This document shows, piece after piece, positions 6,443 through 52,921 of a stretch of DNA of 64,000 nucleotides. Origin of the DNA: Escherichia coli (GTDB lineage Bacteria; Pseudomonadota; Gammaproteobacteria; Enterobacterales; Enterobacteriaceae). The translations under genes and the position numbers were made by a program. Location of the stretch: NCBI GenBank assembly GCA_025544715.1, contig GCA_025544715.1_4109.1; one strand, 5' to 3'. Every line of letters begins with the position of its first letter. Position 1 is the stretch's first letter. The notes beneath the pieces were generated by a model. The model was not told where the DNA came from. It worked only from the letters and a program-made list of their open reading frames with translations, and did no database searches.

Positions 6443-6450
6443 ATAGTCCC

Positions 6451-14423: not shown

Positions 14424-14435
14424 ATATTTTAGCAC

Positions 14436-14443
14436 TATAAATA
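14436..14443 (+). promoter_or_regulatory. T4-type late promoter motif TATAAATA
   Basis: Exact TATAAATA 17 nt upstream of the lysozyme ATG at 14460. Confidence 0.5.
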
Positions 14444-18955: not shown

Positions 18956-19001
18956 ATCATAAATAAATCAAATGAATGAACGAATTATATGGAGTCCAAA
19001 A

Positions 19002-25000: not shown

Positions 25001-28000
25001 CATTGCTCGTATTATTAAAGATCCAACACAGCTAAACATTCCTTGGTTCGCTCCAATCAATGAAAACTCGTTTATTCTTAGTAATATGCAATTTAAAGTT
25101 AATGATGATACCAGTATTTTAACTGTTTCTTATTACATGGATAGTACTGAAGTTGTTAAACATGACCAGTATCAACTATGTAAAGAAGGTGACAGCTATA
25201 ACTTTAACCCACTAATTTGGGATTCAATGTGGAACTCACTAATTGGTCAAGAAACAACTGAATCAGGTTCTGTGATTAATTTATTATATCCAGATGTTGA
25301 TAACGGTTTAGGATCAAACAAAACTTGGTTCCAAAATGTTATAGAAGCTCGTAGAAACTTTGTAGAAAGTGCTAATAATTATTATAGGTCACAAAACATA
25401 ACCACTAATAGTGTTGTTATGGAAGATGTGTTTAATGTTAAAACCACTGAAGTTAACCCGAATGAAGTTTCTTTCCGTGTATTGTCTTACAATAATGAAT
25501 TAGTTATTGCAGTTGAAAGTGATAAATTTAAAGAAAATGACGCTGTTATTTTAAGTACTAGTGGATATCTACCAAATCCATTAACTTCTAGTGCTGTTTA
25601 TTTTATTCACTTCGACGAAAATGGATATATTCAGTTAATGAATAGTCCAGCAAACGCGGGTAGTGTTGTTACTATAACGTTAGAGAACAAAGGTGAGGGT
25701 CAACATAAAATGATTAAACAATCTGATTATGTTGAATCACTAGGAACTTCATTGGACATGACTCAGTACTGGTCATATGCTGATTGGTATGATGTTGGGT
25801 ATGATAGTAACACGACTTATACTCAAGAGTCAAGCTTAGAAGATGCTAATACTAAAAACTACCAAGTTGGTGATATTATCAGAGTTACCGATAGTGAAAA
25901 CATTTGGACATTGTATATTAAATCACAATCACGCGATTCAATTTATTGGAAAGCGATTGGTCGTGAAAACAGTACAGTTGAACTCAATGATATGCTTTAC
26001 GCAGATTATAGTGTTCATAATGATAATGGTTCACTAAGCAATCGTGAAATCAACGTTCGTAAAGCACTCGCTTTACTCAAAAATTCTTTCGATTTACATC
26101 AAAGCGAAATTGTTTTTGATATGGTCAAATATGTACATGTTGAACAAAGTGTTGTGGATTGGGTATTTAAAACATCATATATCTATATTGTTGGTTTGGA
26201 ACAATCATTAGTTCAAAACTATTCAAACGATAATTTGATTAATCAAATTGTTGAATATTTTGAAGAAGTTAAACCTTATAGAACTAAAATTCGTTCACAA
26301 ATAGAGCAAAAGACATCTGATGATGATTTAATAAAAGGTCTGTGTAATGATTTAGATCCTAATGGATATATTTTCGTTGACGGTTCTTGGGTCAAAACTG
26401 AAAAAGATATTTGGGATTATGAGTACGCTCAATTTAATGAAATTACCCAAAAATGGGAACAGGTAGGTTCACTACCAAGCGATTTCATTACACCAAATAG
26501 AAGATTCCAAGAAATTGATATTATTATGCATTACGATAACATTCAATGTAAACCAAATGCAGATTTGGCAAGCATAAATGAATTAGTAAGTGTTAATAAC
26601 AAATATCAATCCAATGAAAAGGATGCTGTTAGTAACTATGAATTACAACGTTATATATATTCTTTCCCAGAATATAGTGAAGAAACTTTCGATCTTCTTA
26701 TTGCTTATCAAATGCAAATCTACTATCCAGAATTGGATGTAACACTAGGAACAGCATATGGCGTTAACCAGTGGTATAAAGACCATGCGGAAGATTTAGA
26801 AGCAACTGATGAATTTACTGCTACATTGGAGCGTGTTTATAAAGAATCAACGCAGAACGATATGTTTACTGACCTTAGACAATATGTTCAGTATAACACA
26901 TTGGCAAACCGTTTGAAACTTTATAAAGATATAAGTGATGAGAAAATTCACGATGAAGTTGGTTGTGGATTTAGTGGACTTACTTATAATGACAATCCTA
27001 GTACTAGACTTCCATTAGGCTTTTCTTCTAGTAATGATTATAACTATGGATATTTTGAAATAAGCAGTGAACTGTATCAAAAATATATTTCATTAATTAA
27101 AGATAAAAATCCTGACGCATCAGACTATGAAGTAAAAGTTAAACTTGAAGTTGAGTATGGTGTATATGTTTATCGTTATGATGAAGTCGGTGGTGATACC
27201 CGTTTCTATACTGATGCTATTCACGTATTAGCAGGTATGAGAGGGTTATTCGACAAAGACGCTACTGATAAGTACGAAAAAGCTGAAGAGATTCTTAGTA
27301 AAACCCCAATTGATATCTATGCAATTACAATGATTCCAAGAAAATATGTTTACTTAAATGTTAACGGTGTATATCAAAGTATACCTGATGAACAAAGTAT
27401 TGATGATTTCATGGAAGATTATTTTATCACAAATGGTGAAATGATTGAACTAGCTGAAATAAATCTAGATGATTTACCACTAGATCAAAATAACCCAATG
27501 TATTCAGATTATCAATATATACTTGATAGTATTACTGAAGCTAAGTACTTCAATGATATGAATGCATTTGATAACCTAGCATTAGAATCTCAAACTTCTT
27601 CAATAAAATGGGAAGTTAAAGATGATGAAGTTGATCCTTATATTGTGGATATATCTGATATAAACCCTTCTGGGCGTGATGTTGGTCAAATTAGATTTAC
27701 AGTTGATGGATATGGGTTTGACAATGTATCTCTTGTACAACTACGTGATAACAGCAGATATCAAACTGAAGGTATGGCAATTATCAATCCATATAAACAT
27801 ACAGAAGCAATTGTTAGTATTCCTTCATATGCTAAGATTGAAAATGATATTAATAAAACAACATCGAAGTTTGATGAAAAATATTTCTATCGTGTGAGAT
27901 CTATTAATAGCTTAACTGAAGCAGAAATAGTTGACAATGACCTATCTGATGGTGATAAGGTGATGATTTTCACTCCTGATGGTGAAGATTTTGTGAGATA

Positions 28001-28973
28001 TCAAAATCACACATGGGAAACAATCTTGCGTGTATCTAATATCAAAAACAATACAACTCCGATCCTATTCACTGTAAGAAATACAGGTAAAGAAACGATT
28101 GAATTGATTGATGAGAGTACTGGTGCAGTTCTCCGTTATGATAATATCACTCTTGCACAACAAAATGAGCCAGTACAGCCTCTTGCATTGAACATTGTTC
28201 GTGTTAGAACATTTGCTGACCCAGAATTTGTGAAGAATGGTATCAAATTGTACGAACAAAATAGAAATTACACAATTGATGTAATTAATTATGATGTTTT
28301 CTACGATACTACTTTAAATGGTGGTAAGTACAATGACGGAATAACACCAGATGACGTTGACGTTTGGGTAATCTCTAACGAAATATTTGATGTTGATGGA
28401 ATTACTATCGACAACGGTTATAACCTACCAATTACTGGTGCGGGAGTTCTTAGTGAATTAGCAAGAACTAAAATGACTGATAGTTTAGAAATCAACGTTA
28501 TTGAATATGATTCAAGTGTTATTCAACCGTTTAGAAATAATGAAGGTATATGGGTTTATGGATATCCAATGGTTGACGGTATGTACATCGGTGTTGTTGG
28601 TGGTACGGTTACTAACATCACAACCATTAGTGAAGAAAATACAACCTATGTTTCTCAACCTAAATCAATAAGTCCTTATAGTATTAGAAATAATGTTTTA
28701 TCCGGTTCAGCCGCGAACATGAATGATATTATATCGATTGGATATGAAAAAGTTGAAGTTAGAAATGCAAATAATTTACTTCGTGGAGTAATGTATAGTG
28801 CAGAACATGATTTTAAACTTAATACTACATATTCATTCAATGGAATTAATTTAGGTAATTATGATATGTTAAAACGTTACACACAAAATAGTTACACTAT
28901 AGATCTTTCAGTATACACTGATAGTCTACAAGTTAGTGGTAATGATATTAAAAATATATTATTAGTTAAGTAA
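19002..28973 (+). CDS. Giant virion structural protein (~3,323 aa), candidate expanded baseplate/host-recognition protein
   Basis: Uninterrupted ORF; ATG 19002 has a GGAG RBS 7 nt upstream (ATG 18972 has none); bounded by strong terminators. Confidence 0.7.
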   Translation: MTNNFKFQPTQMAEAVQKKLFIKRLPEWMQGLEDIQKVSDDVIQQWFNPAENELVDGYIGDMGSPAAAGNIFLHESTVARQLYQLSTAYVSKNDDSTIRSIQFYDDLVGYMNHYGALTDNESRLFNGKFYAWTPAINPNKMNNFSSYLWDTKNSYNITSPDYIVMERGALNGNTWSLQNFWYTLGETLEDGSILTEELMQDSRFIRARAPIIEYNKNIELINYGTKFRGTVDLFSDIIKPEDIVQKDINSGIRIDGIIPQDGMRILFTSIGNNGENNRIYNVYVKKMQDGTRVYGLALDPEEETESRPSGEPQDGDVVLITKGNEYGNSSMYWNGSLWVRAQSKTSVNVFPKFQLYDRNGIKLDNSTTYPSSNFNGSQLFGFKINYNYATDSVYGYNIELGDYNYYMYENFLQSQRYTYDHLGIEVEIDGLYYYNIIDENNEMNLQTDWVRSEEYSKQYVKQTPQVQRTDMYRVFSTVYDMEVFKEPVDGMYAYVVEVDRTYQYYKADRETYLDWHPITGDGVQIVKYDHTFELAQKVLDNDSDIIEVVVDGVDVSKYTKNVSKGQVQSITLDSTVDLDEDSVIQIRTYSSTVTPNKELGAYEVPINLQNNPYNSNIIYINQGDYTLHFQDIIQKNITSGSSDDFNDYEERLAKGLVNNGVGTKIIQNEASMLPLMAHTANEDIDLFEATMFMQSEYFRFINKFNTQMLRMYDENPSDFLQNSAANIVDSILTTINMGRDSSFPFYYDNVGSTSGFIRAFIPPTPQFLGILQAYVPEKATFLTAGSKPSCYNISHTGIISKAYRVINGVDKMDDVVYELENRIFNSIDNKFKDVDYVPVLNSDDLFPTPYFTKTEYSAEEKQTLLLRGYINFTASNGISNSTHDYDPNNWRTWNYTGTYYVVNGQSTEIPARGSWRAIYTDQYGTYRPATHPWEMFGFSQRPTWWNQEYEPTAVQVGERDSDVVYVYEALVMNEQGDLVPSGLWDIDGTIGDSSTGTILSGDRRGQYDKYKRFGVQPFKITKTGNKTSSGIDICVVEYIAPEILGLVSGSLNHRAEPWAYGDMGDMEFTYMNTTLFAYDQMLLLYKAKPAQFANYFWDTRNDNLKEVFTDGSQFLYGDTRKRINFDKNTVVHGENNTRTIGYQMFVSDYLMYQNKNITTKYGDVVRSSYINVGHKIGGFTKADQLTFNAKSFGLISQENQTIGLVRSNNIRDEQMSAIKITWNGSAYQIDGYDLVGAKFKYKLPVKNGRKVTLKLENRNVVHYNEWKSEASIEYGKVFNSYQEVYTFICGYGEYLKEHGWIFEDVNDSGAQQDWNTIAKDFVIWSQNSLVTGEFISCTPSAANAKFGADFGSVQSITQNNGGVWSLLDDNNQGIRQYEIETSRIGNIFTVRTLESNKRIALIRLSLCSYEHAVIFDDKTIFGDYIYQPTYGSIQELIKMYGYITGSWTGRLQAPGFIILEAGTLPSFEKLVSDFQHYYDSETPVSDVQLQELSNHLIGYQSRDYLQRMISSDVSRVDFYKGFIHDKGTNQVLERVLRVSKSYDTDEYKALQEWAFKIGTYGNIDGKKNLQFKLINDQFKQQPQMVSFDVNATSNGNGNHIVYFGEQGKDPRWITRPNGKFSFPMRSGRSENIQLPDIGPVTLDEVSYTTKDFSTAYNDRITYTNGKGENPESVWMFKDGNGLWNIFELVDTNVQMVSITPIENTDVYAEQFCKVTLTDNVPLEDGDYYYFVDETNFMPDTLTVESQYYTAGSDPKVMVVPFDTSIDIEFTDPDTRPRLYRYVSRFVSTDERQAYIDKKYSFKAPQSTLFDRPTTYDERTNITELYLNVYDPINGVIPGAAMQNVTYTSPVDPAQYNSNGELIQAWGADKVGQVWWNTSTAFYLDYTRAIYDADGNVDIDATNEYKRYNWGRLLPHSTIDVLEWVCSPVEPYNWDKYCKDVAKKNKNNTMYLPSGTALEDNYSTFLEYDSSTDSYVTKYYFWVRDTIYVPPLHTRTKSCTDIARIIKDPTQLNIPWFAPINENSFILSNMQFKVNDDTSILTVSYYMDSTEVVKHDQYQLCKEGDSYNFNPLIWDSMWNSLIGQETTESGSVINLLYPDVDNGLGSNKTWFQNVIEARRNFVESANNYYRSQNITTNSVVMEDVFNVKTTEVNPNEVSFRVLSYNNELVIAVESDKFKENDAVILSTSGYLPNPLTSSAVYFIHFDENGYIQLMNSPANAGSVVTITLENKGEGQHKMIKQSDYVESLGTSLDMTQYWSYADWYDVGYDSNTTYTQESSLEDANTKNYQVGDIIRVTDSENIWTLYIKSQSRDSIYWKAIGRENSTVELNDMLYADYSVHNDNGSLSNREINVRKALALLKNSFDLHQSEIVFDMVKYVHVEQSVVDWVFKTSYIYIVGLEQSLVQNYSNDNLINQIVEYFEEVKPYRTKIRSQIEQKTSDDDLIKGLCNDLDPNGYIFVDGSWVKTEKDIWDYEYAQFNEITQKWEQVGSLPSDFITPNRRFQEIDIIMHYDNIQCKPNADLASINELVSVNNKYQSNEKDAVSNYELQRYIYSFPEYSEETFDLLIAYQMQIYYPELDVTLGTAYGVNQWYKDHAEDLEATDEFTATLERVYKESTQNDMFTDLRQYVQYNTLANRLKLYKDISDEKIHDEVGCGFSGLTYNDNPSTRLPLGFSSSNDYNYGYFEISSELYQKYISLIKDKNPDASDYEVKVKLEVEYGVYVYRYDEVGGDTRFYTDAIHVLAGMRGLFDKDATDKYEKAEEILSKTPIDIYAITMIPRKYVYLNVNGVYQSIPDEQSIDDFMEDYFITNGEMIELAEINLDDLPLDQNNPMYSDYQYILDSITEAKYFNDMNAFDNLALESQTSSIKWEVKDDEVDPYIVDISDINPSGRDVGQIRFTVDGYGFDNVSLVQLRDNSRYQTEGMAIINPYKHTEAIVSIPSYAKIENDINKTTSKFDEKYFYRVRSINSLTEAEIVDNDLSDGDKVMIFTPDGEDFVRYQNHTWETILRVSNIKNNTTPILFTVRNTGKETIELIDESTGAVLRYDNITLAQQNEPVQPLALNIVRVRTFADPEFVKNGIKLYEQNRNYTIDVINYDVFYDTTLNGGKYNDGITPDDVDVWVISNEIFDVDGITIDNGYNLPITGAGVLSELARTKMTDSLEINVIEYDSSVIQPFRNNEGIWVYGYPMVDGMYIGVVGGTVTNITTISEENTTYVSQPKSISPYSIRNNVLSGSAANMNDIISIGYEKVEVRNANNLLRGVMYSAEHDFKLNTTYSFNGINLGNYDMLKRYTQNSYTIDLSVYTDSLQVSGNDIKNILLVK

Positions 28974-28974
28974 T

Positions 28975-29011
28975 AAAAAAGGAGAGCATATTGCTCTCCT
29001 TTTCTTTTTTT
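28975..29011. terminator. Bidirectional terminator between the giant structural gene and the ClpA-like gene
   Basis: A6 then GGAGAGC-atatt-GCTCTCC then TTTTCTTTTTTT. Confidence 0.85.
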
Positions 29012-31298
29012 ATGCCAGTGCTTTATCTACAGCTTTGGAACGTTTCGGTTTAATACCGATTTTACCATCAATAACATCAAATGTAATGTTACCACCATTC
29101 ACAAGTGAACCACACAACATTTCTTTAGCTAGTGGTACACGAATGTTTTGTTCAATGGTACGTTTCATTGGACGTGCACCCATGCCAACTTTTACCCCAT
29201 TTTTCGCAAGCCATTCACGTGCAGCTTTTGTCAATGTAACTTTAACATTGCGGTCTTTGACTTGTTCATTCAAACTGCCCATGAACTTATCAATGATGCT
29301 GTCAATAGCTTCACTGCTTAGGTCTTTAAACGTAACGATACTATCAATACGGTTAATGAACTCTGGTGGCAAGAATGCTTTAATTGCCTTGTCTTGTGCA
29401 GTATCACTACCGCTCATACCAATGCTACGCTTCGTTGAATCTGCCGCACCAAGGTTTGTAGTCATAATAACAGTTACGTTATTAAAATATACAGTTTTAC
29501 CTTGTGAACCAGTCAGGCGACCTTCATCCAAAACCTGTAGGAAGGTTAGTAGTACTTTACGATCTGCTTTTTCAATTTCATCAAGTAACAGTACTGCATT
29601 AGGGAACTGCTCAATTTTATCCAACAGTAAACCGTTACCAGAATCATGACCAACATAACCTGGAGGTGAACCAATTAGTTTAGAAACAGTATGTTCTTGA
29701 GAAAATTCTGACATATCAAAGCGAATCAGTTCCGCACCAGTTGCATCTGCTAATGCTTTGGTAATTTCTGTTTTACCAGTACCAGATGGTCCAACAAACA
29801 TAAATGCACCCTGAACACTAGATTTGTCACGCAGTCCTGCACGAGCTACCATCACGTTATCAACTAATTTTTGAATAGCTTCCTCTTGACCGTATACACG
29901 TGAGCGTAGTGCATCTGGTAGATTACGCATACGATCACTTTCAGTACATGCAACCACGTTGATATCCAAATTGGCAATGCCAGCAACAACTTCTTGAATC
30001 AAATTGGCAGTAATAAGCTTACTATTGTTGTCACGTGAACGAACTTTAGCAGCAGCAGCGTCCATTAGATCAATCGCTTTATCTGGGAAGTGCTTATTCT
30101 TCAGGAATTTATCACTGAGAGAAATTACAGCATCCATTGCATCAGTTGTGAACTCAACATTATGGAATTTTTCATAAGTTGGTTTCAAACCATTAACAAT
30201 TGCACGAGTTTCATCAATTGTCGGCTCAACTACATCAATTTTCATAAAACGACGAGTTAATGCACTATCTTTCTCGATATTTTTACGATATTCATCATAT
30301 GTTGTTGCACCAATTACACGAATCTCACCACGTGAAAGTGCTGGCTTAAGCATATTGCTCATGTCCATAGAACCATTACTTGCGGAACCAGCCCCAACCA
30401 TAATATGAATTTCATCAATGAAAACAATAGTATTTTCACGTTTCTTTAGTTCTTTTAGCAAATTGTCGATACGTTCTTCAAACTCACCACGATACTTAGT
30501 ACCAGCAGTCAATGCACCAACATTTAGTGAAAGAATTTCAACGTCTTTCAGGTGTTCAGGTACGTTGCCGTCAGCAATAGCTTGTGCAAGACCGTCGATG
30601 ATTTGTGTTTTACCTACACCAGCTTCACCAGTGAGAATAGCATTCTTTTTGGTCTTGCGAGCAAGAGTCTCAATCAATGCAGACAATTCTTTCTGGCGAC
30701 CAATCATAGGATCTAGTTTGCCTTCTTTTGCAAGAGCAGTTAGATTCGTTGTATAGTCTTCCAAACCTTTTTGTTTAGATGATTGCTGCTGTTGGGCCAC
30801 TTTTTTATCTCCAATCGGTTCGTCATTAATGCTTTGTAAGTTGATACCCTTATCAAGTGACTCAACGTGTTTTTGTAATGCACGTGCAGCTTCAGTACAG
30901 CTAACACCTTCTTCTTTTAACGCAGCTTCTAGTGCTGTGTTAGGGAAAGACAGACATTCGAATAGAACAAAATATGCATCAATCGAAAAATCATCACTTT
31001 TTAGTTGTTCAATAACTGATTTTTTAGAAAGCTCATGTACAACGCGATTCACTAGAAGTGAAGTACGATTCGCGTCTTCATCTTTAACACTTTTTGGTGC
31101 ATGTGGAACTGTTGTATTTTTAAGATAGTTCATCAGGCGGTTGTGCAGTTTGTCTGCATCAATGTTCATATCTTCAAATACGTTCTTGATGCTATCAATA
31201 GTCAGTACTGTGGCACTTACGTGGTCAATAGTCAAGAATGTATGACCTAGAGATGTTGCCAGTTCGTCGCTTTTTTTGAACAATTGAGTAAGATTCAT
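29010..31298 (-). CDS. clpA: ClpA-like two-ring AAA+ unfoldase (Clp N-domain, D1 and D2)
   Basis: 762 aa; D1 Walker A GEAGVGKT, Walker B IVFIDEIH; D2 Walker A GPSGTGKT, Walker [10 protein letters not shown]; collinear similarity to E. coli ClpA (recalled); IGM tripeptide (SIGMSGSD) at the position of the ClpA IGL ClpP-docking loop. Start taken as ATG 31298 with AGGAG RBS; ORF track GTG 31319 overlaps the RBS. Confidence 0.85.
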
Positions 31299-31338
31299 GT
31301 ATTCTCCTATGTGATTCACGTCACTCTAATTAATAAAC

Positions 31339-31366
31339 ATTATATCACATTCTTACGGTTTGTCTA
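31339..31366 (-). promoter_or_regulatory. Sigma70-like promoter (-35 TAGACA, 16 nt spacer, -10 TATAAT with upstream TGTGA) for the ClpA-like gene
   Basis: Minus-strand reading: TAGACA-aaccgtaagaatgtga-TATAAT; about 40 nt upstream of ClpA ATG 31298. Confidence 0.6.
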
Positions 31367-31408
31367 CAAGGTAAATAAAGATATACCCGATTTATTTTGG
31401 AGACAAAC

Positions 31409-32902
31409 ATGACATATAGAATGTGGAAAAAAGGTAGAACCAATGATTACAAGTTCATTGATTCTGCCATTGCTGAACAATACAACATTGGTGGAGTTGA
31501 CATGTGGCTTTATGCATATGTCGGTCCAAAACAAGTTGCTGACAACACTGACTTATCCTATGGAGGTGATTATACATCTTCAGGATCAGTTGTGTCAAGT
31601 ATTGGCGATTTAATTTTTGGTGACACACCAAACAGAAACTACAACCTTGAAGCTATCACACTTAGTTGTGTCTATCAAGTTCAAGAAGCAACTCCAGACT
31701 TGAAAATCCCAGGATTGTTCTTTAATTTCAACACTATGGACATCACAATCCATTATAATACAATGATGCAGCGTTTAGGTAGAAAAATCATGCCAGGGGA
31801 TGTGATAGAACTACCAAATTTACGTGATTTTGATGTATTGGGTAAAGATACAGGTCTAAACCGCTTCTATGTCGTCCAAGATGCATTTCGTACATCTGAG
31901 GGATACTCGGTTACGTGGCAACATCACATTTATAAACTTAGAGTTAAACCGCTAACCGACTCACCTGAGTACTCCGATTTACTCGGTAACAATAATTATC
32001 CTGATAATCCAGATGACCCTAATAATGGTAATGGAAATACCGATGATGGTTCGTCGGAAAACAGTAACTATGACAATGAAATGGATATCATGAACCGTAT
32101 CATCATGCAAGCTGATGATGAAGTACCCTACATTCATTTTACAAATGAACATTTGTATGATGATCGACCTGATACTGTAGATTTATCAAAATATATGCTT
32201 AATGGTTATGATTTCCCAGAAGAACCTGCCGATGGAATGTATTTTTTGAAAAAAACATACCCAGTACTCAAAGAGTTTGTTAATGATACATGGATTTCTG
32301 TGGAAGTCAAGCGTGGAACTATCTTTCCCAGAAAACCAATGGATGGTGACTTCTTCTTTAAAGAAAATGACGCAGATGTGACAGGTTATACGTTGTATCA
32401 ATATGATAAAAGTGCTAAAAAATGGTTAAATTGTGATGTAGAATATACTACCAGTGATGTTCCACCAGAAGATGTGGAAGATTTTTGTATTTTTTATAAA
32501 GAACCACACATTTATCAGTATAATGATGACAAGTGGGGGGAACCAAAGGTAACTTATGTCAATGAACCATTCACGTCCAATTGTGTATATGGTAATATTG
32601 ATTCCCAACAAGATTATCGTCCTAAAATTCCACCAGCACGAGGTACTGTCCCTGAAGGAAATATGTTCCCGACTGATGCAGTAGATGGTGACTATTTCTA
32701 TCGTACCGATTATACCCCAGTTACGTTATGGGAATTCAATGCAACTAAGAATTCATGGGTTATTTTTGATTATGGTGGAAGAAAACCGTGGGAAGGTGCA
32801 GACCTAGCACTTACACAGTTTGTAAATAGTGATAACAAAGTTCCATTACATGACGCAGTTAAACCTAATACTGTTTATCGCATACATAAGGACACAGAAT
32901 GA
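31409..32902 (+). CDS. Hypothetical protein (497 aa), probable virion/baseplate component
   Basis: ORF with GGAG RBS 6 nt upstream of ATG 31409 (ORF track begins at TTG 31397). Confidence 0.5.
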   Translation: MTYRMWKKGRTNDYKFIDSAIAEQYNIGGVDMWLYAYVGPKQVADNTDLSYGGDYTSSGSVVSSIGDLIFGDTPNRNYNLEAITLSCVYQVQEATPDLKIPGLFFNFNTMDITIHYNTMMQRLGRKIMPGDVIELPNLRDFDVLGKDTGLNRFYVVQDAFRTSEGYSVTWQHHIYKLRVKPLTDSPEYSDLLGNNNYPDNPDDPNNGNGNTDDGSSENSNYDNEMDIMNRIIMQADDEVPYIHFTNEHLYDDRPDTVDLSKYMLNGYDFPEEPADGMYFLKKTYPVLKEFVNDTWISVEVKRGTIFPRKPMDGDFFFKENDADVTGYTLYQYDKSAKKWLNCDVEYTTSDVPPEDVEDFCIFYKEPHIYQYNDDKWGEPKVTYVNEPFTSNCVYGNIDSQQDYRPKIPPARGTVPEGNMFPTDAVDGDYFYRTDYTPVTLWEFNATKNSWVIFDYGGRKPWEGADLALTQFVNSDNKVPLHDAVKPNTVYRIHKDTE

Positions 32903-34242
32903 AAATAGATTATTATTATGACGGTCAATTTCGCAGAGTACTGAAACATCTTATCAGAGTTTTTGGTGAATTTCAAGTACAAAATGGTGTTGATGCTAAT
33001 GGAAACCCAAAATACAAAAAGGTTCCATGTCGCTATGCCGATATTTCAAGAATGGCAGCAGCAATTATAAATGGGAATAGTGAAAATGTTCTCCCATCAG
33101 CACCTATAATGACCATAAGTGTTAATCAACTAAAGTTGGATCGTAAAAATATTCGTTCTAATGCCAACGAAACTATAGTAATGGGGTCTAACAAGACCCC
33201 TGCTATTAATGAGTACACAAAAGAACTTGACACACAATACAAAATTGTAAGACATAACCCAGTACCTTGGACTTTTACGTTTGATTTGAATATTTGGGTA
33301 ACTCAAACTCAAACTAAAATGGAATTATTCGAACAAATCTCAACTTTGTTTGCACCTAGTATACAACTTCAATTATCTGATAACCCGTTAGATTGGACAT
33401 CGCTTAGTGATGTTGAACTAATAGATTGTCAGTTTTCTACTCGTGGTTTTCCACAAGGAACTGACCCAGATTTGGATATAATGGTTTTAACATTTGAAAC
33501 GACAATATGGTTTTCTTTACCAGCTATTGTTGAAAAACCAAAATTAATTCAACAGATTACTACAAATATTAAAGGTGCTCGTGACGAATTTGATTTTGAA
33601 ATGGGAAATTATTCAGATATAATAACAGATGTTTTTACACCAAAGAACTTATGTATTAAAGTTGAAGAAATTACTAATTCCAAGTATAATTTACCTGATA
33701 CATACCAACTTACCTTGGTTAGCCAATCGCTATCTGCGGTTTCTCCCAACGGTGGAATATATTCATGGGAAAAATATCTTAAATATCTAGAACCAAATTT
33801 TGATGATAAAAAAGTAGGGATTAAATTTCAACAATCTATTGAAGAAGACAACCCACTAAAAGGTCATATAGCGTCGTATGGTGAAAATGAAGATGCCAAC
33901 AAAATTATAGTACAGCTTGATAATACAAATTATACTGTTGATTATACTATACATGGGTTTGTGCAGAAAGATTCAGTACTTTCAAATGCATTACCTGAAC
34001 AATATTATGTAAATAACAGTATACATAACATCATTTATAAAGAAACCGAAATCCCATCAAATTATTTGTTTAAAATTACAAATGATGGTGCACAATTAAT
34101 TGAACCATCTACTGTACGAAATTACATTTATAATAAAGAAGACAATGGTTATTATAGATATAATGACAAATTTAAATGGCATAAAAGTATAATGCCTGTG
34201 TATCGTCAGGGATATTGGAAAATAACTTTCACTGACAAATAA
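32899..34242 (+). CDS. Hypothetical protein (447 aa), probable virion component
   Basis: Start overlaps upstream stop (ATGA), indicating translational coupling. Confidence 0.5.
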   Translation: MKIDYYYDGQFRRVLKHLIRVFGEFQVQNGVDANGNPKYKKVPCRYADISRMAAAIINGNSENVLPSAPIMTISVNQLKLDRKNIRSNANETIVMGSNKTPAINEYTKELDTQYKIVRHNPVPWTFTFDLNIWVTQTQTKMELFEQISTLFAPSIQLQLSDNPLDWTSLSDVELIDCQFSTRGFPQGTDPDLDIMVLTFETTIWFSLPAIVEKPKLIQQITTNIKGARDEFDFEMGNYSDIITDVFTPKNLCIKVEEITNSKYNLPDTYQLTLVSQSLSAVSPNGGIYSWEKYLKYLEPNFDDKKVGIKFQQSIEEDNPLKGHIASYGENEDANKIIVQLDNTNYTVDYTIHGFVQKDSVLSNALPEQYYVNNSIHNIIYKETEIPSNYLFKITNDGAQLIEPSTVRNYIYNKEDNGYYRYNDKFKWHKSIMPVYRQGYWKITFTDK

Positions 34243-34255
34243 AGGAGGTGTTGTT

Positions 34256-34720
34256 ATGAATGAAGCGGTTGGTGCTATATTTTTATCAAAAAGTACTGGA
34301 CATATGATGTTAAACTTGCGTTCTGAAAGAAGTACCTATTCTAACAACTGGGCATTTGTTGGTGGAAAGCTTGAACATAACGAAACACCATTACAAGGTC
34401 TGATGAGAGAAATTAAAGAAGAGTTGGGCAACTCAATACCTAACATTATTGATATTATACCGTTTGATGTATTTTGTACAAAAAATGGTAAATTTAAATA
34501 TTATTCATTTGTTATTGTAGTTGAGAATGAATTTGTACCGACTTTAAATCATGAAAGCTCTGGTTATGCTTGGGTTAGAATTGGTTCTTGGCCTAAACCA
34601 TTACACCCTGGTGCTAAAAATACTTTACTTAACACAAACTTAATGAAAGATTTTTACTCACTATGGGAAAGTATACGTGAAGGTACACAGTTTGTCAACA
34701 GTTTACCATATAGATATTAA
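34256..34720 (+). CDS. Nudix hydrolase
   Basis: 154 aa; exact Nudix box GGKLEHNETPLQGLMREIKEELG (Gx5Ex7REUxEExGU); AGGAGG RBS. Confidence 0.8.
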   Translation: MNEAVGAIFLSKSTGHMMLNLRSERSTYSNNWAFVGGKLEHNETPLQGLMREIKEELGNSIPNIIDIIPFDVFCTKNGKFKYYSFVIVVENEFVPTLNHESSGYAWVRIGSWPKPLHPGAKNTLLNTNLMKDFYSLWESIREGTQFVNSLPYRY

Positions 34721-34723
34721 AAC

Positions 34724-34752
34724 AAAAAGGAGCCGTGTGGCTCCTTTTTTTA
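34724..34752. terminator. Bidirectional terminator between the Nudix gene and the minus-strand cassette
   Basis: A5 then GGAGCC-gtgt-GGCTCC then T7. Confidence 0.85.
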
Positions 34753-35850
34753 TACTCCAATAATCGGAATACCTGTAATATTTAACAACACGGATGCTTG
34801 TAGTTTAACGGATTCACCAGCAGTTAGATTACTAATGCTACCATCAACTCGAAAACCTAAATTTTTATTTGAGTTTAGAGAATTGATAACCCAATTTTCA
34901 TAATCAGCTTTAGATGTTCCATTAGGATTTGGAATAGATGGATCTACACCATTAATAACAATATTTACGTCCCAGTTTGGGCGACTACTGGTAATAACAT
35001 CTTTTATGGATTCTAATTGTGTAATCCTACGTGGGTCTGGCATTTGACTTGCCCCAACCGAACCAGGAACAAAAGTTCCTTGATTATCTACATAGAATTG
35101 CCCTTTTATAAAAAAGGTTTTTGAATTATAGGGAAGAGAAACTATCTCACCAGAAGAATCATTTACTTCTCTAATCATAATTTTTAATTCATAGAAATAG
35201 TTGCTACCAAATTCAAATACACCAGTACCATTAGTTAATGTTGTCCAGTTATTTGTATCTACTTGTGAAGTACCACCTAAGTTAAAATACGCAATTGGTT
35301 TAGTACTGTTACTTTGTGTGAACTCTATATATTTTTTACCATTATCATAGTTAATATCTAATAATGATGAATACTCTTTGTTTTCTGGTCTAGATGTTTG
35401 AATTTCACGCCATTCTTTGTTTTTCATTAACACACGAAGAGAATCACCGTTACTAGTTAATACCATACGACCCATAACACTATTTTCACCATCAGGTACT
35501 GTGTTAAAAACAGTAATCATAGGTATAGACGCCCATTCAGCTTCAGTTACAATATCAGCAGGTTGTCTAGCATTATCAACTAATGATATCAATAACTCAC
35601 CAGTACTACCAGTGTTTCTATACCAAAGTTGACCATTGACGTTACCACGTGGTGCAGATGCTGAACTGAAATTTTCAACTAAATGTAAAAAGTTTTCGTT
35701 CCATGCTTGACCATAACTTACTTTGTTTCTACCAACTAAATTTAACGGAACTGGGTTACTTCCTGGCTGGTTTGGTCCTAAAATAACATTATTTGGAATG
35801 GTAGCATAAACACTACCATTACTTCTATAAATTGTATAATTAACACTCAT
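34750..35850 (-). CDS. Hypothetical protein (366 aa)
   Basis: First gene read into the 34724-34752 bidirectional terminator; part of a three-gene minus-strand cassette. Confidence 0.5.
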   Translation of the reverse strand: MSVNYTIYRSNGSVYATIPNNVILGPNQPGSNPVPLNLVGRNKVSYGQAWNENFLHLVENFSSASAPRGNVNGQLWYRNTGSTGELLISLVDNARQPADIVTEAEWASIPMITVFNTVPDGENSVMGRMVLTSNGDSLRVLMKNKEWREIQTSRPENKEYSSLLDINYDNGKKYIEFTQSNSTKPIAYFNLGGTSQVDTNNWTTLTNGTGVFEFGSNYFYELKIMIREVNDSSGEIVSLPYNSKTFFIKGQFYVDNQGTFVPGSVGASQMPDPRRITQLESIKDVITSSRPNWDVNIVINGVDPSIPNPNGTSKADYENWVINSLNSNKNLGFRVDGSISNLTAGESVKLQASVLLNITGIPIIGV

Positions 35851-35862
35851 TATATGTCCCCA

Positions 35863-36471
35863 TTATTGTAATTGTACACGAACTGTGTATTTAATTTGTA
35901 AGACACGGTTTGCACTTTTCTCAACTGGGTGAAAAATGATATGGGTTAAAGGAATACCACTATCTCCATCCGTGTACAATCCCAATTCATCAAATACATA
36001 AGTTCCATCCATGCTTGTCCCTGAGCTTACACCTTGGTCGGATGGTTCACCTAACCCTAGAGTACAAATACATACAATATCAGTATAGGACTGACCTGGT
36101 ATATGTACAGTTGTAATATTATTGTATTGTGAATCAATACCTGCCGTAATTCGTGGGTTGATTTTTTTCAAATATGTTTGTGAATACAAACCACCAAATG
36201 ATGTAACACGTGGTTTTTTATAAGTAACACGCCCAGTACTTAAAACTACTGTACCACCATTACCAAAACGCATCTCGCTAATAGAACCAATAGGAATACC
36301 AGTACTGTCTTGATTATATGCTAACGCATTAGCAATGGCAGTACTCATATTTTCAGGGTGAATAGCGTTAGATTTATCTAAAACGATTTTTTGATTTGAT
36401 GGATCAGTAACGTCAGTAATTAGGACATGACCTTTAACAAATAGTTTTGGTTGTTCTGTTTCTAATTTCAT
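35863..36471 (-). CDS. Hypothetical protein (202 aa)
   Basis: Tightly packed ORF in the minus-strand cassette. Confidence 0.5.
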   Translation of the reverse strand: MKLETEQPKLFVKGHVLITDVTDPSNQKIVLDKSNAIHPENMSTAIANALAYNQDSTGIPIGSISEMRFGNGGTVVLSTGRVTYKKPRVTSFGGLYSQTYLKKINPRITAGIDSQYNNITTVHIPGQSYTDIVCICTLGLGEPSDQGVSSGTSMDGTYVFDELGLYTDGDSGIPLTHIIFHPVEKSANRVLQIKYTVRVQLQ

Positions 36472-36480
36472 TTCTAATCC

Positions 36481-36978
36481 TTAGTAGTTAATTAAAATTT
36501 GTTCTAACTTCCCAGCTAAACTTTTTTGGACATCTGATGGATACTTACTAATATAATCACGGTCTATACCAACTTTAAGGTAAGTAAAATTACCAGTTAC
36601 TGTTTCAGCAAATGTTCCGGTAGTTCCTTGTTGTCTAATTAAATCCCCACCATTTGGATTTAAAATAACCATATCAGTAAATTCAAGATAATAATTACAA
36701 CTTTCAGTGAATTTAATTGGAAACCAATCATCATCAGTAGGATTACTAGCTAATGTAGCTAACACATAAATTCTACCAATAAAATTACGTAGTGTAAATG
36801 AAATCGTATGTAAACCTGTAGTACAGCCATAGTAGCCACCACTAGCAAGTGGTAACGTTTGTTCATTCCAGTGATAATCCAAGTTAGCTGGATACCAGCT
36901 ATCAGATTCAGGAAAATCTTGCCATGAACCATCTTTTGTTTTTCTTCTGAAGAGAAAGTCTTTTGATCTTAATGCCAT
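36481..36978 (-). CDS. Hypothetical protein (165 aa)
   Basis: First ORF of the minus-strand cassette; divergent from the fibre gene at 37089. Confidence 0.5.
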   Translation of the reverse strand: MALRSKDFLFRRKTKDGSWQDFPESDSWYPANLDYHWNEQTLPLASGGYYGCTTGLHTISFTLRNFIGRIYVLATLASNPTDDDWFPIKFTESCNYYLEFTDMVILNPNGGDLIRQQGTTGTFAETVTGNFTYLKVGIDRDYISKYPSDVQKSLAGKLEQILINY

Positions 36979-37088
36979 TGTTTAAGCCCTTTTAGTAGTG
37001 AACTTTCATTTATTTATTAATGATAACGAAATGTATTTTGTACTGATAAATATTGGTATATGACATTAACTCATACAAGGGAAATATT

Positions 37089-38204
37089 ATGACAATTTCA
37101 TTTAATGGTTCATGTAATAACTCCGGCATCAAAAGTCTAGTTATTAATGGTGCTGGGCATTTAATTGTAACCTATGCAGATAACACAATTCAAGATTTAG
37201 GTCTTGTTGTAGGACAGAATGGCGAGAATGGTAAAAACTTTTATCCTAATGAGATTGGTTTTGAAATTCCTTCCGAACAATTTAAAGTTGGTGAACCACT
37301 TGGGTGGTGCTACTTAAGCTTGGCTAACAACACCAGTACTCTATACTTTAAATCAAACGATGCACAAGATCCGACAAGTACATGGATTAGTGTTGAGTTT
37401 GGTAAAGGTGATACTGGTGAAGCGGGTAAGCCGTTCCACATTGATAGTGCTGGGACTTCTTTCCCAACAACTGGTCTTTTTAATAACTATACATTTTATA
37501 ATACTCAAGATGGTAAGCTTTATTTCTATCAAAGTGTAACTGCCACTTGGAGTGATGGTATCCCTTTCCGTGGTGAACAAGGTCCGCGTGGTCGTTTCCA
37601 TATTGATAGCAGTGGTGATCAATTTCCAAGTATTGAAAATCTTCCAGTTGATTATTGTTTTTATAACAACACTGATGGAAAACTATATTATGTTGATGAA
37701 GTAACTACAACTACCCCTCCTTCAAAAGAGTGGAGTGATGGTATTCTATTCCGTGGTAAAGAAGGTCAGCAAGGTATTCAAGGTATACAAGGCGAACCAG
37801 GTGCACCAGGTAAAGATACAATTTCTATTAGAAATACCATAGATAGCTCATGGACTAACGCACTATTAGTTATTGGTACATGTCCTGCTGGATATGTAGT
37901 TTCTAATATTGATGTAAACGTTATACAACCTTATTCTCTTCCTGTAACTGATATGTTTGTACGTTTTGGTGGTGAAGCACAAGAAGATATTGGCGGGACG
38001 GTAATTGCACCAACTTCCTACTTTGATATCAATCGTCAGATGCGTTTTATTGTTAATGAAACTAATCATGCAGCATCCGATGTTGATGAAATTATTTCAT
38101 GTGTATTCAACGATTCTGTTAACAACAGTCCTTATGGAAAAATGGAAATTATTTGTACTCTTTCATGGCAAGCTCCTATCCAACCGATTCAAGATAATAT
38201 TTAA
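37089..38204 (+). CDS. Tail fibre-like protein with short collagen-like (Gly-X-Y) stretch and internal duplications
   Basis: ATG 37089 with AAGGGA RBS (ORF track TTG 37053); GKEGQQGIQGIQGEPGAPGKD; duplicated FHIDS(A/S)G...DGKLY(F/Y)...WSDGI(P/L)FRG units. Confidence 0.55.
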   Translation: MTISFNGSCNNSGIKSLVINGAGHLIVTYADNTIQDLGLVVGQNGENGKNFYPNEIGFEIPSEQFKVGEPLGWCYLSLANNTSTLYFKSNDAQDPTSTWISVEFGKGDTGEAGKPFHIDSAGTSFPTTGLFNNYTFYNTQDGKLYFYQSVTATWSDGIPFRGEQGPRGRFHIDSSGDQFPSIENLPVDYCFYNNTDGKLYYVDEVTTTTPPSKEWSDGILFRGKEGQQGIQGIQGEPGAPGKDTISIRNTIDSSWTNALLVIGTCPAGYVVSNIDVNVIQPYSLPVTDMFVRFGGEAQEDIGGTVIAPTSYFDINRQMRFIVNETNHAASDVDEIISCVFNDSVNNSPYGKMEIICTLSWQAPIQPIQDNI

Positions 38205-51957: not shown

Positions 51958-51995
51958 TAAAAAAGGGAGAACATTAGTTCTCCCTTTTCGTTTAT
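51958..51995. terminator. Bidirectional terminator between the last fibre gene and thyA
   Basis: A-run then GGGAGAAC-atta-GTTCTCCC then TTTTCGTTT. Confidence 0.85.
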
Positions 51996-52921
51996 ACAGC
52001 CATAGGTGCTTTAATTGTTGGCATTGGGTTGTAATTCACTAATTTGAAAGAATCCATTGTGAAATCTTCAATATTAGTAATTGTAGGATCAAGCCACAAT
52101 TCAGGTAATTCACGAGGTTTTCGCTGTAGTTGTTCTTTTACTTGTTCAACGTGGTTTTTATAAATGTGACAATCACCACCATTCCAAATAAATTCACCAA
52201 CATCTAAACCAGTAATTTGTGCAATCATATGAGTTAGTAGTGAGTAACTACTGATATTAAATGGAACTCCCAAAAATAGATCAGCGGAGCGTTGATGTAG
52301 AATGCAGCTTAGTTTCCCTTGTACTACACAAAATTGCACAAAGCTATGACAAGGTGGCAACGTCATATCATCAAGCTCACCAACGTTCCAGGCACTTAGA
52401 ATGTGGCGACGACCATATGGATCGGAATGTATACCTTTGATTAGTTCTTGTAATTGGTCAGTTGTACGTTTCATAACAACACCATGTGAACCAGTATAAT
52501 CGATAACTTTGTATCCTTTATCTTTTAATTCTTGAATTTCTTCAGTACTGGAACTAAATTTATAATCTTCCCATTCACGCCATTGCTTACCATACACTGG
52601 ACCCAATTCACCATCAGTATAACCAAGAGCAACGCCTTGATTTAGGTAATTATCTGTCCAAATTGTTTTCTTTTCAGTATCACGAGTTCCATGCAAAATT
52701 TCACAAAGGCGACGCTCATCATGGGAACCTTCAATAAACCATAGTAATTCTGAAGTCATTGCTTTCCAAGCTAGACGTTTTGTCGTCACTGCTGGGAAAC
52801 CATCGTTAAGGTCGAAACGCATTTGTTGACCGATAAGTTTGATTGTCCCAACACCAGTACGGTCAACGCTTTCTACGCCTTCATCTAGAATTTTTTGATA
52901 TAGTTCTTGTAGTTGTTTCAT
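51992..52921 (-). CDS. thyA: Thymidylate synthase (ThyA family)
   Basis: 309 aa; catalytic LPPCH, HQRSADLFLGVPFNISSYSLL, GGDCHIYKNH, C-terminal IKAPMAV; Asn in the PFNI motif implies a uracil-type substrate. Confidence 0.9.
   Translation of the reverse strand: MKQLQELYQKILDEGVESVDRTGVGTIKLIGQQMRFDLNDGFPAVTTKRLAWKAMTSELLWFIEGSHDERRLCEILHGTRDTEKKTIWTDNYLNQGVALGYTDGELGPVYGKQWREWEDYKFSSSTEEIQELKDKGYKVIDYTGSHGVVMKRTTDQLQELIKGIHSDPYGRRHILSAWNVGELDDMTLPPCHSFVQFCVVQGKLSCILHQRSADLFLGVPFNISSYSLLTHMIAQITGLDVGEFIWNGGDCHIYKNHVEQVKEQLQRKPRELPELWLDPTITNIEDFTMDSFKLVNYNPMPTIKAPMAV

Follow-up and report, generated by a model that had tools for sequence, protein, structure and literature searches.

What a Nudix hydrolase does at the end of a block of phage structural genes, immediately behind the gene for a gp15-like tail terminator, is the question raised by this locus. 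The window (the whole stretch of 64,000 nucleotides that was analysed) belonged to an Asteriusvirus, a giant coliphage of the PBECO4/121Q/phAPEC6 type, with 99% identity. An identical protein (100%) was found in PBECO4 (gp542), 121Q (ORF578), phAPEC6 (gp249), and about 18 other records, and the homologs from RaK2 (gp066), CBB (CBB_232) and GAP32, and PA5oct (gp161) shared 79%, 71% (both), and 54% identity, respectively. The gene is already known: it carries the label "MutT/NUDIX hydrolase" in dozens of public GenBank/RefSeq jumbo-phage records, and the Asteriusvirus/Rak2-like MutT/NUDIX hydrolase (PHROG 1198) is the same gene in the same place behind the gp15-like gene, with no difference of substance. 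According to PMC9503650, about 45% of jumbo phages carry Nudix genes. In the literature searched, neither a biochemical characterisation of the Asteriusvirus/Rak2-like homologs nor a published assay of the family was found.

Nudix box, fold, and family-specific motifs

The coding sequence and its motifs were located as follows:

34256..34720, + strand: Nudix hydrolase CDS of 154 aa with an ATG start, the last of three genes in the unit (ORF list)
34364..34432, + strand: Nudix box, residues 37-59, GKLEHNETPLQGLMREIKEELGN (motif scan)
34529..34555, + strand: family-specific motif E92-F-x-P-x-x-N98-x-E100 (invariant columns in alignment A1)
34598..34612, + strand: family-specific motif P115-L-H117-P-G119, capping the C-terminal helix at its N-terminal end

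The ORF of 154 aa reported in the preliminary description was present in the ORF list at exactly these coordinates. Its Nudix box had the layout G37-x5-E43-x7-R51-E52-I53-x-E55-E56-x-G58-N59, in which E52, E55, and E56, plus R51 and E43, are the metal-binding and catalytic residues, and agreed with GX5EX7REUXEEXGU at 22 of the 23 positions. The exception was the final U, a non-catalytic position that is occupied by Asn (N59) and is variable across the family; all catalytic and metal-binding positions were kept, so that the earlier term "perfect" slightly overstated the match. By six-frame scan, no Nudix motif was found elsewhere in the window, and none of 200 shuffles yielded one. The protein matched PF00293 with 57 bits (E = 2.6e-15; residues 4-122, corresponding to profile positions 5-129 of 134), above the gathering threshold of 21.1 bits by which membership in this Pfam family is defined. 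Loss of the catalytic Glu residues on alignment, a possibility raised beforehand, was not seen: the box core was invariant in all 39 family members of alignment A1, and E43, R51, E52, E55, and E56 were intact in 80/80 IMG/VR relatives. In the AF2 model (pLDDT 90.7, pTM 0.85), the order of strands and helices was that of the Nudix fold (alpha/beta/alpha, with the box on a loop-helix-loop), and the C-terminal helix began at residue 118; no signal, anchor, or extra domain was found in the protein. These results suggested that the ORF very probably encodes an active Nudix hydrolase. An inactive or regulatory (NrtR-like) Nudix protein was ruled out because the catalytic residues were all invariant and there was no DNA-binding domain.

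Outside the box, EFxPxxNxE was found in 80/80 environmental relatives, and E100 was the sole extra-box residue still invariant when other Nudix paralogs were included (alignment A2, which takes in T4 NudE and the paralogs of PBECO4). L116, H117, and G119 of the second motif were invariant in alignment A1, and a PLHxG-like motif was present in 77 of the 80 environmental relatives. The PLHPG-type motif was also kept in the homologs from phiRSL1, BcepSauron, and SCTP-2 (alignment A2), and was missing from the bacterial NudG/MutT-like protein P0081, T4 NudE, and the PBECO4 paralogs. PLHPG may be regarded as a candidate element for substrate specificity, and the roles proposed for E100 and H117 are those suggested by alignment and (predicted) secondary structure.

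Relationship to the T4 NudE family

The protein was assigned over its full length to PHROG 1198 (E = 4.6e-45; residues 1-153), with the next PHROG family at 4.4e-10. PHROG 1185, the family of T4 NudE.1, matched residues 6-71 only (E = 1.2e-4), and BLASTP against T4 NudE gave 24% identity over 102 aa around the box (E = 6e-4). Reciprocally, T4 NudE was assigned to PHROG 1185 at 6.5e-74 and to PHROG 1198 at 4.5e-7. Membership in the T4 NudE family, with which the preliminary description had proposed a comparison, was ruled out by the BLASTP result and these reciprocal scores. T4 NudE (NudE.1) resembles the protein in being a phage-encoded, single-domain Nudix enzyme of roughly 150 aa with an intact box, whose gene adjoins late genes (e, ipII, and ipIII in T4), and is auxiliary, not essential, in T4. 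However, it belongs to the other family (PHROG 1185), and the PBECO4-type phage has its own member of that family: gp032 (E = 6e-47), which lies beside macro-domain and glutaredoxin genes. PBECO4 furthermore contains gp094, a Nudix gene next to Sir2, and gp467, encoding a MazG-like pyrophosphatase beside the ribonucleotide reductase genes. With three separate Nudix families in these phages, the biochemistry of T4 NudE.1 is not transferable to the PHROG 1198 member.

At least 599 relatives of the PHROG 1198-type Nudix protein were found in IMG/VR, and among representative genomes of 185,579 species a short-peptide-pattern scan, which is not exhaustive, gave only one weak cellular match. Judged from these matches, the family is phage-specific. 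PADLOC gave one match (E = 1e-13), to PDC-S07, a Nudix protein of a candidate defence system; this was taken as generic domain similarity.

Transcription unit and neighbourhood

The Nudix gene followed a virion protein gene and a gp15-like tail terminator gene, in this order, and the unit was delimited by the following features:

31370..31379, + strand: T4-late-promoter-like motif GGTAAATAAA, ~39 nt upstream of the first ATG in the unit; may serve all three genes as a late promoter
31409..32902, + strand: first gene, virion structural protein, homolog of PBECO4 gp540 (PHROG 11591 "virion structural protein", E = 5.6e-272; annotated in PBECO4)
32899..34242, + strand: second gene, T4 gp15-like tail sheath stabiliser/tail terminator (PF16724 T4-gp15_tss, E = 2.3e-20; PHROG 227/11196)
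34243..34248, + strand: Shine-Dalgarno sequence AGGAGG, 7 nt ahead of the Nudix ATG, a strong ribosome-binding site (read from the sequence)
34724..34749, no strand assigned: bidirectional intrinsic-terminator-like hairpin AAAAAGGAGCC-gtgt-GGCTCCTTTTT (terminator scan)

The second gene overlapped the first by 4 nt, and its stop codon (34240-34242) was separated from the Nudix ATG by a gap of 13 nt. The G+C-rich hairpin, symmetric owing to the A run and T run on its flanks, was called by the scan on the minus strand, and occupied the 29-nt gap between convergent stop codons, the convergent downstream gene ending at 34750. A related, relaxed motif of the TAAATA type ([A/T]ATAAATA) may mark other operons of the window as well, since several further structural genes that open an operon had it at a consistent distance of 36-43 nt on their upstream side, and ATAAATA precedes structural genes in CBB and GAP32 according to the CBB paper (PMC5259590). 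The exact T4 late promoter TATAAATA was present three times in the window vs ~10 expected (no enrichment), with none near the Nudix operon, and a scan for sigma-70-like promoters gave 50 sites vs 41 +/- 6 in shuffles (no excess). As a late promoter, the motif at 31370..31379 is suggestive only. No Asteriusvirus RNA-seq was found in the literature, and the Nudix gene goes unmentioned in the PA5oct paper. The weak promoter-like motif, together with the neighbouring genes, indicates that the Nudix gene is probably expressed late. Its earlier placement at the end of a late structural operon stood as regards position (last gene, after the gp15-like gene, with the hairpin behind it), while "late" derives from this context.

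Virion content and pairing with the gp15-like gene

Products of both upstream genes have been detected in virions: CBB_234, the CBB homolog of the first gene, by MS, and the gp15-like protein in phAPEC6 (gp248), CBB (CBB_233), and PA5oct (gp162). The Nudix protein was missing from all three proteomes. In phAPEC6, gp249 (the identical protein) was not in the list of 62 virion proteins, in which gp245, gp248, gp250c, gp251c, and gp253 were present; CBB_232 was missing from a list that contains CBB_230, 231, 233, and 234; and gp161 of PA5oct had no ESI-MS/MS note, nor had gp160 directly downstream, whereas gp159, gp162, and gp163 had one. Virion proteins of low copy number can escape shotgun MS, and absence from such a list is no proof; phAPEC6 gp247 and RaK2 gp067 (gp15-like) were also undetected. 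The Nudix protein is likely to be a non-virion late protein.

On the other hand, the association with the tail gene was strict. The gp15-like gene was followed by the Nudix gene on one strand in 80/80 environmental viral loci, down to 42% identity (directly adjacent in 68), in 5/5 metagenome contigs, and in 4 isolate genera, and the Nudix protein was more conserved than this adjoining core tail protein (median identity of 48% vs 31%). Such a lock to the tail-terminator gene, together with slower evolution than gp15, points to a function under strong selection. One explanation is that a few copies of the enzyme are packaged or tail-associated and used at infection, or are needed in tail/neck completion, the fixed gene position reflecting a physical or functional link. 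The known Portal-Nudix fusions (PHROG 15528 match; PMC9503650) and the blind spot of shotgun MS described above are in keeping with it. However, absence from three independent virion proteomes, each with several flanking products detected, and the lack of a signal, anchor, or extra domain argue against it. Moreover, the gene order of structural modules is inherited vertically in this clade, and synteny alone is no proof of coupling; distant members of the family (phiRSL1 and BcepSauron) are not beside tail genes and instead sit among nucleotide-metabolism genes, e.g. dCMP deaminase. We consider a low-copy virion or assembly-linked enzyme quite improbable.

Nearest characterised enzymes

The PDB profile search gave MutT (5x1x and 4v14), NudI, and NudG (2rrk) as the top matches (E values of 1e-9 to 1e-11), and NudI was the best structural match. 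Among NCBIfam models, the MutT-like fusion model PRK08999 ranked first, followed by MutT, NudG, and NudI. The closest cellular proteins, P0081 and its like, were 38% identical, and their own top-scoring models were those of NudG and MutT. In these comparisons, the family branches nearest to the MutT/NudG/NudI (d)NTP pyrophosphohydrolases. Nevertheless, none of the equivalog cut-offs was reached: 36.8 bits vs 148 and 35.2 vs 97.9 for MutT (NF008044 and TIGR00586, respectively; residues 4-63 only), 32.1 vs 156 for NudG (NF007834), and 31.8 vs 95 for NudI (NF012016). RppH (NF001936 and related models) likewise fell short of its equivalog cut-off, with 27.9 bits vs 118 at best (E = 1.8e-6), and the NudE and NadM models (E values of 0.04 to 6e-4) were far under theirs. 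Equivalence to MutT, NudG, NudI, RppH, NudB, NudE, or NadM was ruled out by scores far under the curated cut-offs. The phage protein shares with NudI (YfaO), NudG (ORF135), and MutT of E. coli/Salmonella/Klebsiella a single domain of 130-155 aa and the core W-x-F-x-G-G-K...E...RE.xEE.G. On the other hand, the alignment with E. coli MutT was confined to the N-terminal half, and the phage family alone has EFxPxxNxE, PLHPG, and a longer C-terminal helix.

An RNA 5'-end enzyme of the RppH/BdRppH or Dcp2 type was also considered, which late in infection would act on transcripts with a 5'-triphosphate or a cap, leave them with a 5'-monophosphate, and thereby accelerate mRNA turnover, as with the late poxvirus decapping enzyme D10. 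The top single-sequence PDB match was indeed an RNA pyrophosphohydrolase, BdRppH (Bdellovibrio Bd0714; PDB 3ees, E = 4e-7), and Dcp2 Nudix domains gave full-domain alignments, the longest obtained (residues 25-137), which persisted in the profile search. Weak Nudt16-like Pfam matches were found for this protein and some family members, and the RppH models matched as described above. However, all these matches were well under the family cut-offs and no better than those to MutT, NudI, and NudG, and BdRppH itself is of the MutT-like dNTPase type, so its match does not discriminate. Unlike BdRppH and Dcp2, the phage protein is acidic and has no RNA-binding extension. Most members of the family are acidic (median pI of 5.7 and median net charge of -3), as expected for an enzyme with a small molecule rather than RNA as its substrate, and they consist of a bare domain of 140-155 aa with no RNA-binding module added. 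An RNA 5'-end enzyme is an unlikely reading.

A second alternative, closer to the NAD-derived substrates proposed in the preliminary description, is an enzyme directed at ADP-ribose, NAD(H), RNA capped with NAD, or immune signals derived from ADPR (e.g. messengers of the Thoeris type or products of NADases), which would blunt NAD-centred immunity of the host or recycle AMP. Phage Nudix proteins are widely assigned to NAD-ADPr conflict networks, some of them within late/morphogenesis clusters (PMC9503650; PMC7824862). T4 NudE.1 cleaves ADP-ribose, Ap3A, FAD, NAD, and NAD-RNA in vitro, and a BFVD neighbour of the present protein (TM 0.82) is labelled COG1051 "ADP-ribose pyrophosphatase". In the ADPRase subfamily, a Pro is found 15-16 residues after the box, and NudC carries SQPWPFPxS. 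Neither motif was present in the 154-aa sequence: residues 74-76 were C-T-K (T75 and K76 at the ADPRase positions), the prolines were at 62 and 69, and there was no SQPWPFPxS-like string. Furthermore, the protein lies outside the NudE.1 family, its top sequence and profile matches were NTP pyrophosphohydrolases rather than NudE/NadM-type enzymes, and it is probably not packaged, so that it would be unavailable when the genome is injected. A role with NAD-derived substrates falls more naturally to gp032 and the Sir2-adjacent gp094, which this phage type has in addition, and the nearest characterised relatives are (d)NTP enzymes, not ADP-ribose/NADH ones. The suggested effect on nucleotide-based immunity is conceivable, but nothing in the analysis pointed to it. 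We regard an NAD/ADP-ribose enzyme as having a low probability.

Putative (d)NTP-type pyrophosphohydrolase

The reading that we tentatively prefer, at somewhat less than even chances, is a late-made, non-virion, small-molecule pyrophosphohydrolase of the (d)NTP type. Transcription would probably start from the T4-late-type promoter at ~31370 and run through the three genes to the hairpin at 34724-34749. The product, presumably not a stable virion component, would work in the cytoplasm of the infected cell as a soluble, single-domain, catalytically competent enzyme. By analogy with the superfamily, divalent cations bound in the Nudix helix (by E52, E55, and E56) would activate water, E43, R51, and the invariant E100 would assist, and a pyrophosphate bond in a nucleoside di- or triphosphate derivative would be cut, with NMP plus PPi or P-X as products. 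The likeliest substrate would be a small-molecule (d)NTP, be it a non-canonical one, a damaged one, or else a pyrimidine dNTP, with EFxPxxNxE and PLHPG setting the specificity, and the role may be sanitation or balancing of the nucleotide pool during replication and packaging of the 350-kb genome. As for the substrate alone, a (d)NTP type is plausible at best, on present sequence comparisons.

The other enzymes of PBECO4 (gp032, gp094, and gp467) and the location of the distant members among nucleotide-metabolism genes were counted in favour of the (d)NTP-type enzyme. Several points count against it: all matches to characterised enzymes were far under the family cut-offs, NTPs are already served by a MazG-like pyrophosphatase of the phage, and the strict place behind the tail-terminator gene in 80/80 loci is unexpected for a nucleotide-pool enzyme and is left unexplained. 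Nucleotide-pool enzymes are usually encoded by early or middle genes.

That the coupling with the gp15-like gene is functional, and not mere inherited gene order, appears distinctly unlikely. In such a case, a few virion copies (in the neck, tail, or head) may act at the start of infection, the enzyme may clear a nucleotide-type molecule that hinders late assembly or packaging, or it may destroy a defence-made nucleotide, for instance a (d)NTP that terminates chains or has a modified base, which would otherwise poison late replication. Any of these versions, if true, would make the protein the first of its kind among phage enzymes of late function or counter-defence. Identification of the substrate would close a gap in what is understood of how jumbo phages handle nucleotides or counter host defences, and the Nudix protein is small, soluble-looking, and confidently modelled.

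Nudix gene and three-gene unit

The Nudix gene was the third and final member of three co-oriented genes, and the following features were assigned:

31370-31379, + strand: promoter-like motif GGTAAATAAA in the sequence, 39 nt before the ATG of gene 1
31409-32902, + strand: gene 1, virion structural protein (PHROG 11591)
32899-34242, + strand: gene 2, T4 gp15-like tail sheath stabiliser/terminator (PF16724, E 2.3e-20), with a 4-nt overlap with gene 1
34243-34248, + strand: Shine-Dalgarno sequence AGGAGG, 7 nt 5' of the Nudix ATG
34256-34720, + strand: Nudix CDS, 154 aa, ATG start (a single exact ORF in the ORF list)
34364-34432, + strand: Nudix box, residues 37-59 (G37-x5-E43-x7-R51-E52-I53-x-E55-E56-x-G58-N59)
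34724-34749, both directions possible: perfect G+C-rich hairpin, 11 bp, flanked at one end by a run of A and at the other by a run of T
1861, 3747, 14419-14443, 31370, 37018 (- strand), 49952 and others in the window: TAAATA-type motif sites

The start of gene 1 was taken as ATG 31409, as annotated in PBECO4 and phAPEC6 (GGAG is found 7 nt 5' of that ATG); the ORF list instead opens this gene at TTG 31397. The stop codon preceding the Nudix gene (34240-34242) was separated from it by 13 nt, no terminator-like site was detected between the three genes in the terminator scan, and the hairpin occupied a 29-nt gap with a convergent virion-protein gene on its far side.

An [A/T]ATAAATA (TAAATA-containing) motif was also found 36-43 nt 5' of several further operon-first structural gene starts in the window; it resembles both the T4 late promoter and ATAAATA, which has been put forward as a candidate late promoter in CBB and GAP32 (PMC5259590). 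The GGTAAATAAA motif is no more than suggestive of a late promoter of the unit. Since exact TATAAATA was not enriched in the window, being rarer than chance (3 found versus ~10 expected), and sigma-70-like sites in the promoter scan were at chance level only, we infer late timing from the neighbouring genes and the motif. The position of the gene in the preliminary description, at the end of an operon inside the structural block, was borne out, while "late" is a reading of context.

The consensus GX5EX7REUXEEXGU was fitted at 22 of 23 positions, the final U being Asn (N59), so that the earlier term "perfect" was slightly generous; this position is non-catalytic and variable in the family alignment. 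The motif was unique in the 64-kb window (six-frame regular-expression scan; 0 in 200 shuffles), PF00293 scored 57 bits (cut-off, 21.1; E 2.6e-15), and the five catalytic residues, including the Glu residues whose loss would have spoken against the assignment, were intact in 80 of 80 IMG/VR relatives, the sole variation being at the last Gly of the box (7 loci). These sequence features suggest that the protein is very probably an active Nudix enzyme. The observation of a canonical Nudix hydrolase inside the structural gene block was confirmed, and its earlier interpretation was supported in part.

Prior annotation and family assignment

Positions 31000-38000 showed 98-99% identity to the genomes of ~20 Escherichia/Salmonella jumbo phages in the genus Asteriusvirus (PBECO4, 121Q, phAPEC6, UB, SP27, and G17 among them), and at least 19 records contain the same 154-aa protein (100% identity). 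Because these identical proteins are labelled "MutT/NUDIX hydrolase", "MutT-like protein" or, once, "nudG: CTP pyrophosphohydrolase", the finding as first written is already in databases, and the gene is not novel, being annotated in many public genomes. No biochemical study of the protein or its close relatives was found in the literature search.

The comparison with the T4 NudE family, proposed earlier, was negative: the protein matched PHROG 1198 (phage MutT/NUDIX hydrolase) along its full length (E 4.6e-45) versus E 1.2e-4 for PHROG 1185 (T4 NudE.1), and the scores of T4 NudE were reciprocal (6.5e-74 to PHROG 1185 and 4.5e-7 to PHROG 1198). NudE-family membership was ruled out by these scores and by an identity of 24% limited to 102 residues around the box.

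Other Nudix-type genes were surveyed in the PBECO4 annotation on both sides of 300-320.8 kb, covering the first 300 kb and everything beyond 320.8 kb:

NC_027364.1 26976-27374: gp032, NudE.1-family Nudix (PHROG 1185, E 6e-47)
NC_027364.1 65840-66391: gp094, third Nudix family (PHROG 9999)

The neighbours of gp032 were genes for a glutaredoxin, a macro-domain protein, and a tRNA nucleotidyltransferase. A Sir2 gene immediately adjoined gp094, the same sirtuin-Nudix linkage as that described for Serratia phage BF by Iyer et al. (PMC9503650). A MazG-like NTP pyrophosphatase (gp467) was encoded close to the ribonucleotide reductase genes, and neither NadV nor NMNAT was annotated in the surveyed parts. 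The PBECO4 Nudix-type genes show a predicted division of labour. As for the NAD or immune signalling role suggested in the preliminary description, nothing ties the protein specifically to either; an NAD/ADP-ribose enzyme is unlikely, since dedicated paralogs exist and ADPRase and NudC motifs were absent from the protein.

Fold and family-specific residues

The AlphaFold2 model, built from a 39-sequence family alignment, had a pLDDT of 90.7 and pTM of 0.85. The top PDB-sequence matches in a profile search were MutT (5x1x and 4v14), NudI, NudG (2rrk), and BdRppH (E 1e-9 to 1e-11); NCBIfam models ranked in the order of a MutT-like fusion model, MutT, NudG, NudI, and RppH, each far under its cut-off. 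In a 5.8-billion-protein collection, the nearest cellular proteins were P0081-P0091, of which P0081-P0086 matched ~68% of the query at 37-38% identity; the NudG and MutT models scored these proteins best. By these sequence comparisons, the family therefore branches from the part of the superfamily that holds the (d)NTP pyrophosphohydrolases, but is orthologous to none of the characterised enzymes. The BdRppH match, together with one to Dcp2, would also fit an RppH/Dcp2-like RNA 5'-end enzyme speeding late mRNA turnover; the NTPase matches were equally good and most family members are acidic (medians: pI 5.7, net charge -3), making this role improbable. Such a charge is a weak argument for a small molecule, rather than a polynucleotide, as substrate.

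Invariant residues outside the box were R22, F80, Y82, E92, F93, P95, N98, E100, G103, W106, L116, H117, and G119; an EFxPxxNxE motif was found in 80/80 and a PLHxG-like motif in 77/80 environmental relatives. Many Nudix enzymes have an extra metal ligand or catalytic base outside the box. E100, which stayed invariant in an alignment extended by T4 NudE and both PBECO4 paralogs, may fill such a role. PLHPG, which neither the bacterial NudG/MutT-like relative nor the other paralogs have in the alignment, caps the C-terminal helix starting at residue 118 in the model. As base recognition in MutT and MTH1 is carried out by residues at the corresponding site, H117 is a candidate specificity determinant.

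Distribution and linkage to the gp15-like gene

The family was found throughout the Rak2-like jumbo phages: RaK2 and K64-1 (79% identity), GAP32, CBB, BF, and Erwinia/Yersinia/Xanthomonas phages (~70%). Homologs of PA5oct-like Pseudomonas phages showed 54% identity, and SCTP-2, phiRSL1, BcepSauron/Saruman, BCSR5, and Motura carried distant recognisable members. Because at least 599 relatives were found in IMG/VR versus a single weak one among representative genomes of 185,579 bacterial/archaeal species (pattern scan), the family appears essentially phage-specific.

The Nudix gene lay directly 3' of the gp15-like gene in RaK2, CBB, and PA5oct. The gp15-like gene was also upstream in four metagenomic contigs (homologs with 41-52% identity), sometimes with inserted or a few small genes between; a fifth was too short to class its upstream gene. 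A gp15-like HMM from seven sequences was searched against ORFs of the best 80 of the at least 599 IMG/VR loci, whose Nudix proteins shared 42-70% identity with the query. Each of the 80 had a co-oriented gp15-like ORF 5' of the Nudix gene, with a gap of ≤68 nt in 68 and 350-770 nt in 12. Median identity to the window proteins was 48% for Nudix versus 31% for gp15-like (76 loci with a full-length gp15-like gene). In the most distant members, phiRSL1 and BcepSauron, the gene was located among nucleotide-metabolism/early-type genes (dCMP deaminase, NAD salvage, topoisomerase IB, and an RNA polymerase subunit). The pairing was not found described in the literature searched; the remaining interest is in an apparently phage-specific Nudix family without characterisation, tightly and anciently coupled to a tail-terminator gene and better conserved than it.

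In one subclade (~27/75 loci; L028, L030, L045, L056, L068, and others), a conserved hypothetical protein of ~210-250 aa with the motif INPV[RK]ALY[FY][ED] was encoded co-directionally 3' of Nudix, its gene often overlapping the Nudix stop codon; the window has the convergent virion gene instead, and PA5oct gp160 (6423-7031 of its locus, L002) is in the same place. At L002 5995-6420 of PA5oct (MK797984.1), the annotated Nudix CDS (gp161, 105 aa, start at locus position 6103) appears N-terminally truncated: family homology, first β-strands included, starts ~100 nt before that position, where the gp15-like gene ends.

Virion content and predicted function

The phAPEC6 virion list (its Table 1) contains gp245, gp248 (gp15-like), gp250c, gp251c, and gp253, but not gp249, which is identical to the window protein; that of CBB contains CBB_230, 231, 233, 234, and 236, but not CBB_232. 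In the PA5oct GenBank record, an "ESI-MS/MS" note is attached to gp159, gp162, and gp163, and to neither gp161 nor gp160 directly downstream. Nudix homologs were thus not found in these three published virion proteomes within their sensitivity, which low-copy proteins may escape (phAPEC6 gp247 and the gp15-like RaK2 gp067 were likewise missed). The protein probably does not form a stable part of the virion. A role as a low-copy virion enzyme or as one linked to assembly, in keeping with the extreme synteny with the gp15-like gene, is quite improbable given the three proteomes.

As the best-supported reading, we propose that the protein would be an active, cytoplasmic, and probably late-made pyrophosphohydrolase, and tentatively incline toward a (d)NTP-class substrate. 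This would be a (d)NTP of small-molecule type (non-canonical or damaged), or else a pyrimidine dNTP, and the role would be pool sanitation or balancing during replication and packaging of the 350-kb, 35% G+C genome. The main weakness of this reading is that nothing obvious explains why a pool enzyme should sit locked behind the tail-terminator gene; moreover, the phage already carries the MazG-like enzyme.

Other genes in the structural block

18972-28973, + strand: 3333-aa ORF (~382 kDa), homolog of PBECO4 gp538/phAPEC6 gp245
28977-29003: terminator-like hairpin after this ORF
29010-31319, - strand: ClpA/ClpB-type double AAA+ ATPase, 769 aa (Clp_N, AAA, AAA_2, and ClpB_D2-small)
51992-52921, - strand: thymidylate synthase (PBECO4 gp005 homolog), among virion genes

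The ClpA/ClpB-type gene stands mid structural block, between the 3333-aa virion gene, whose phAPEC6 homolog was detected in virions, and the tail-terminator operon. Thymidylate synthase (gp259c) is listed as particle-associated in the phAPEC6 virion proteome, reminiscent of the folate enzymes reported in early work on T4 baseplates.
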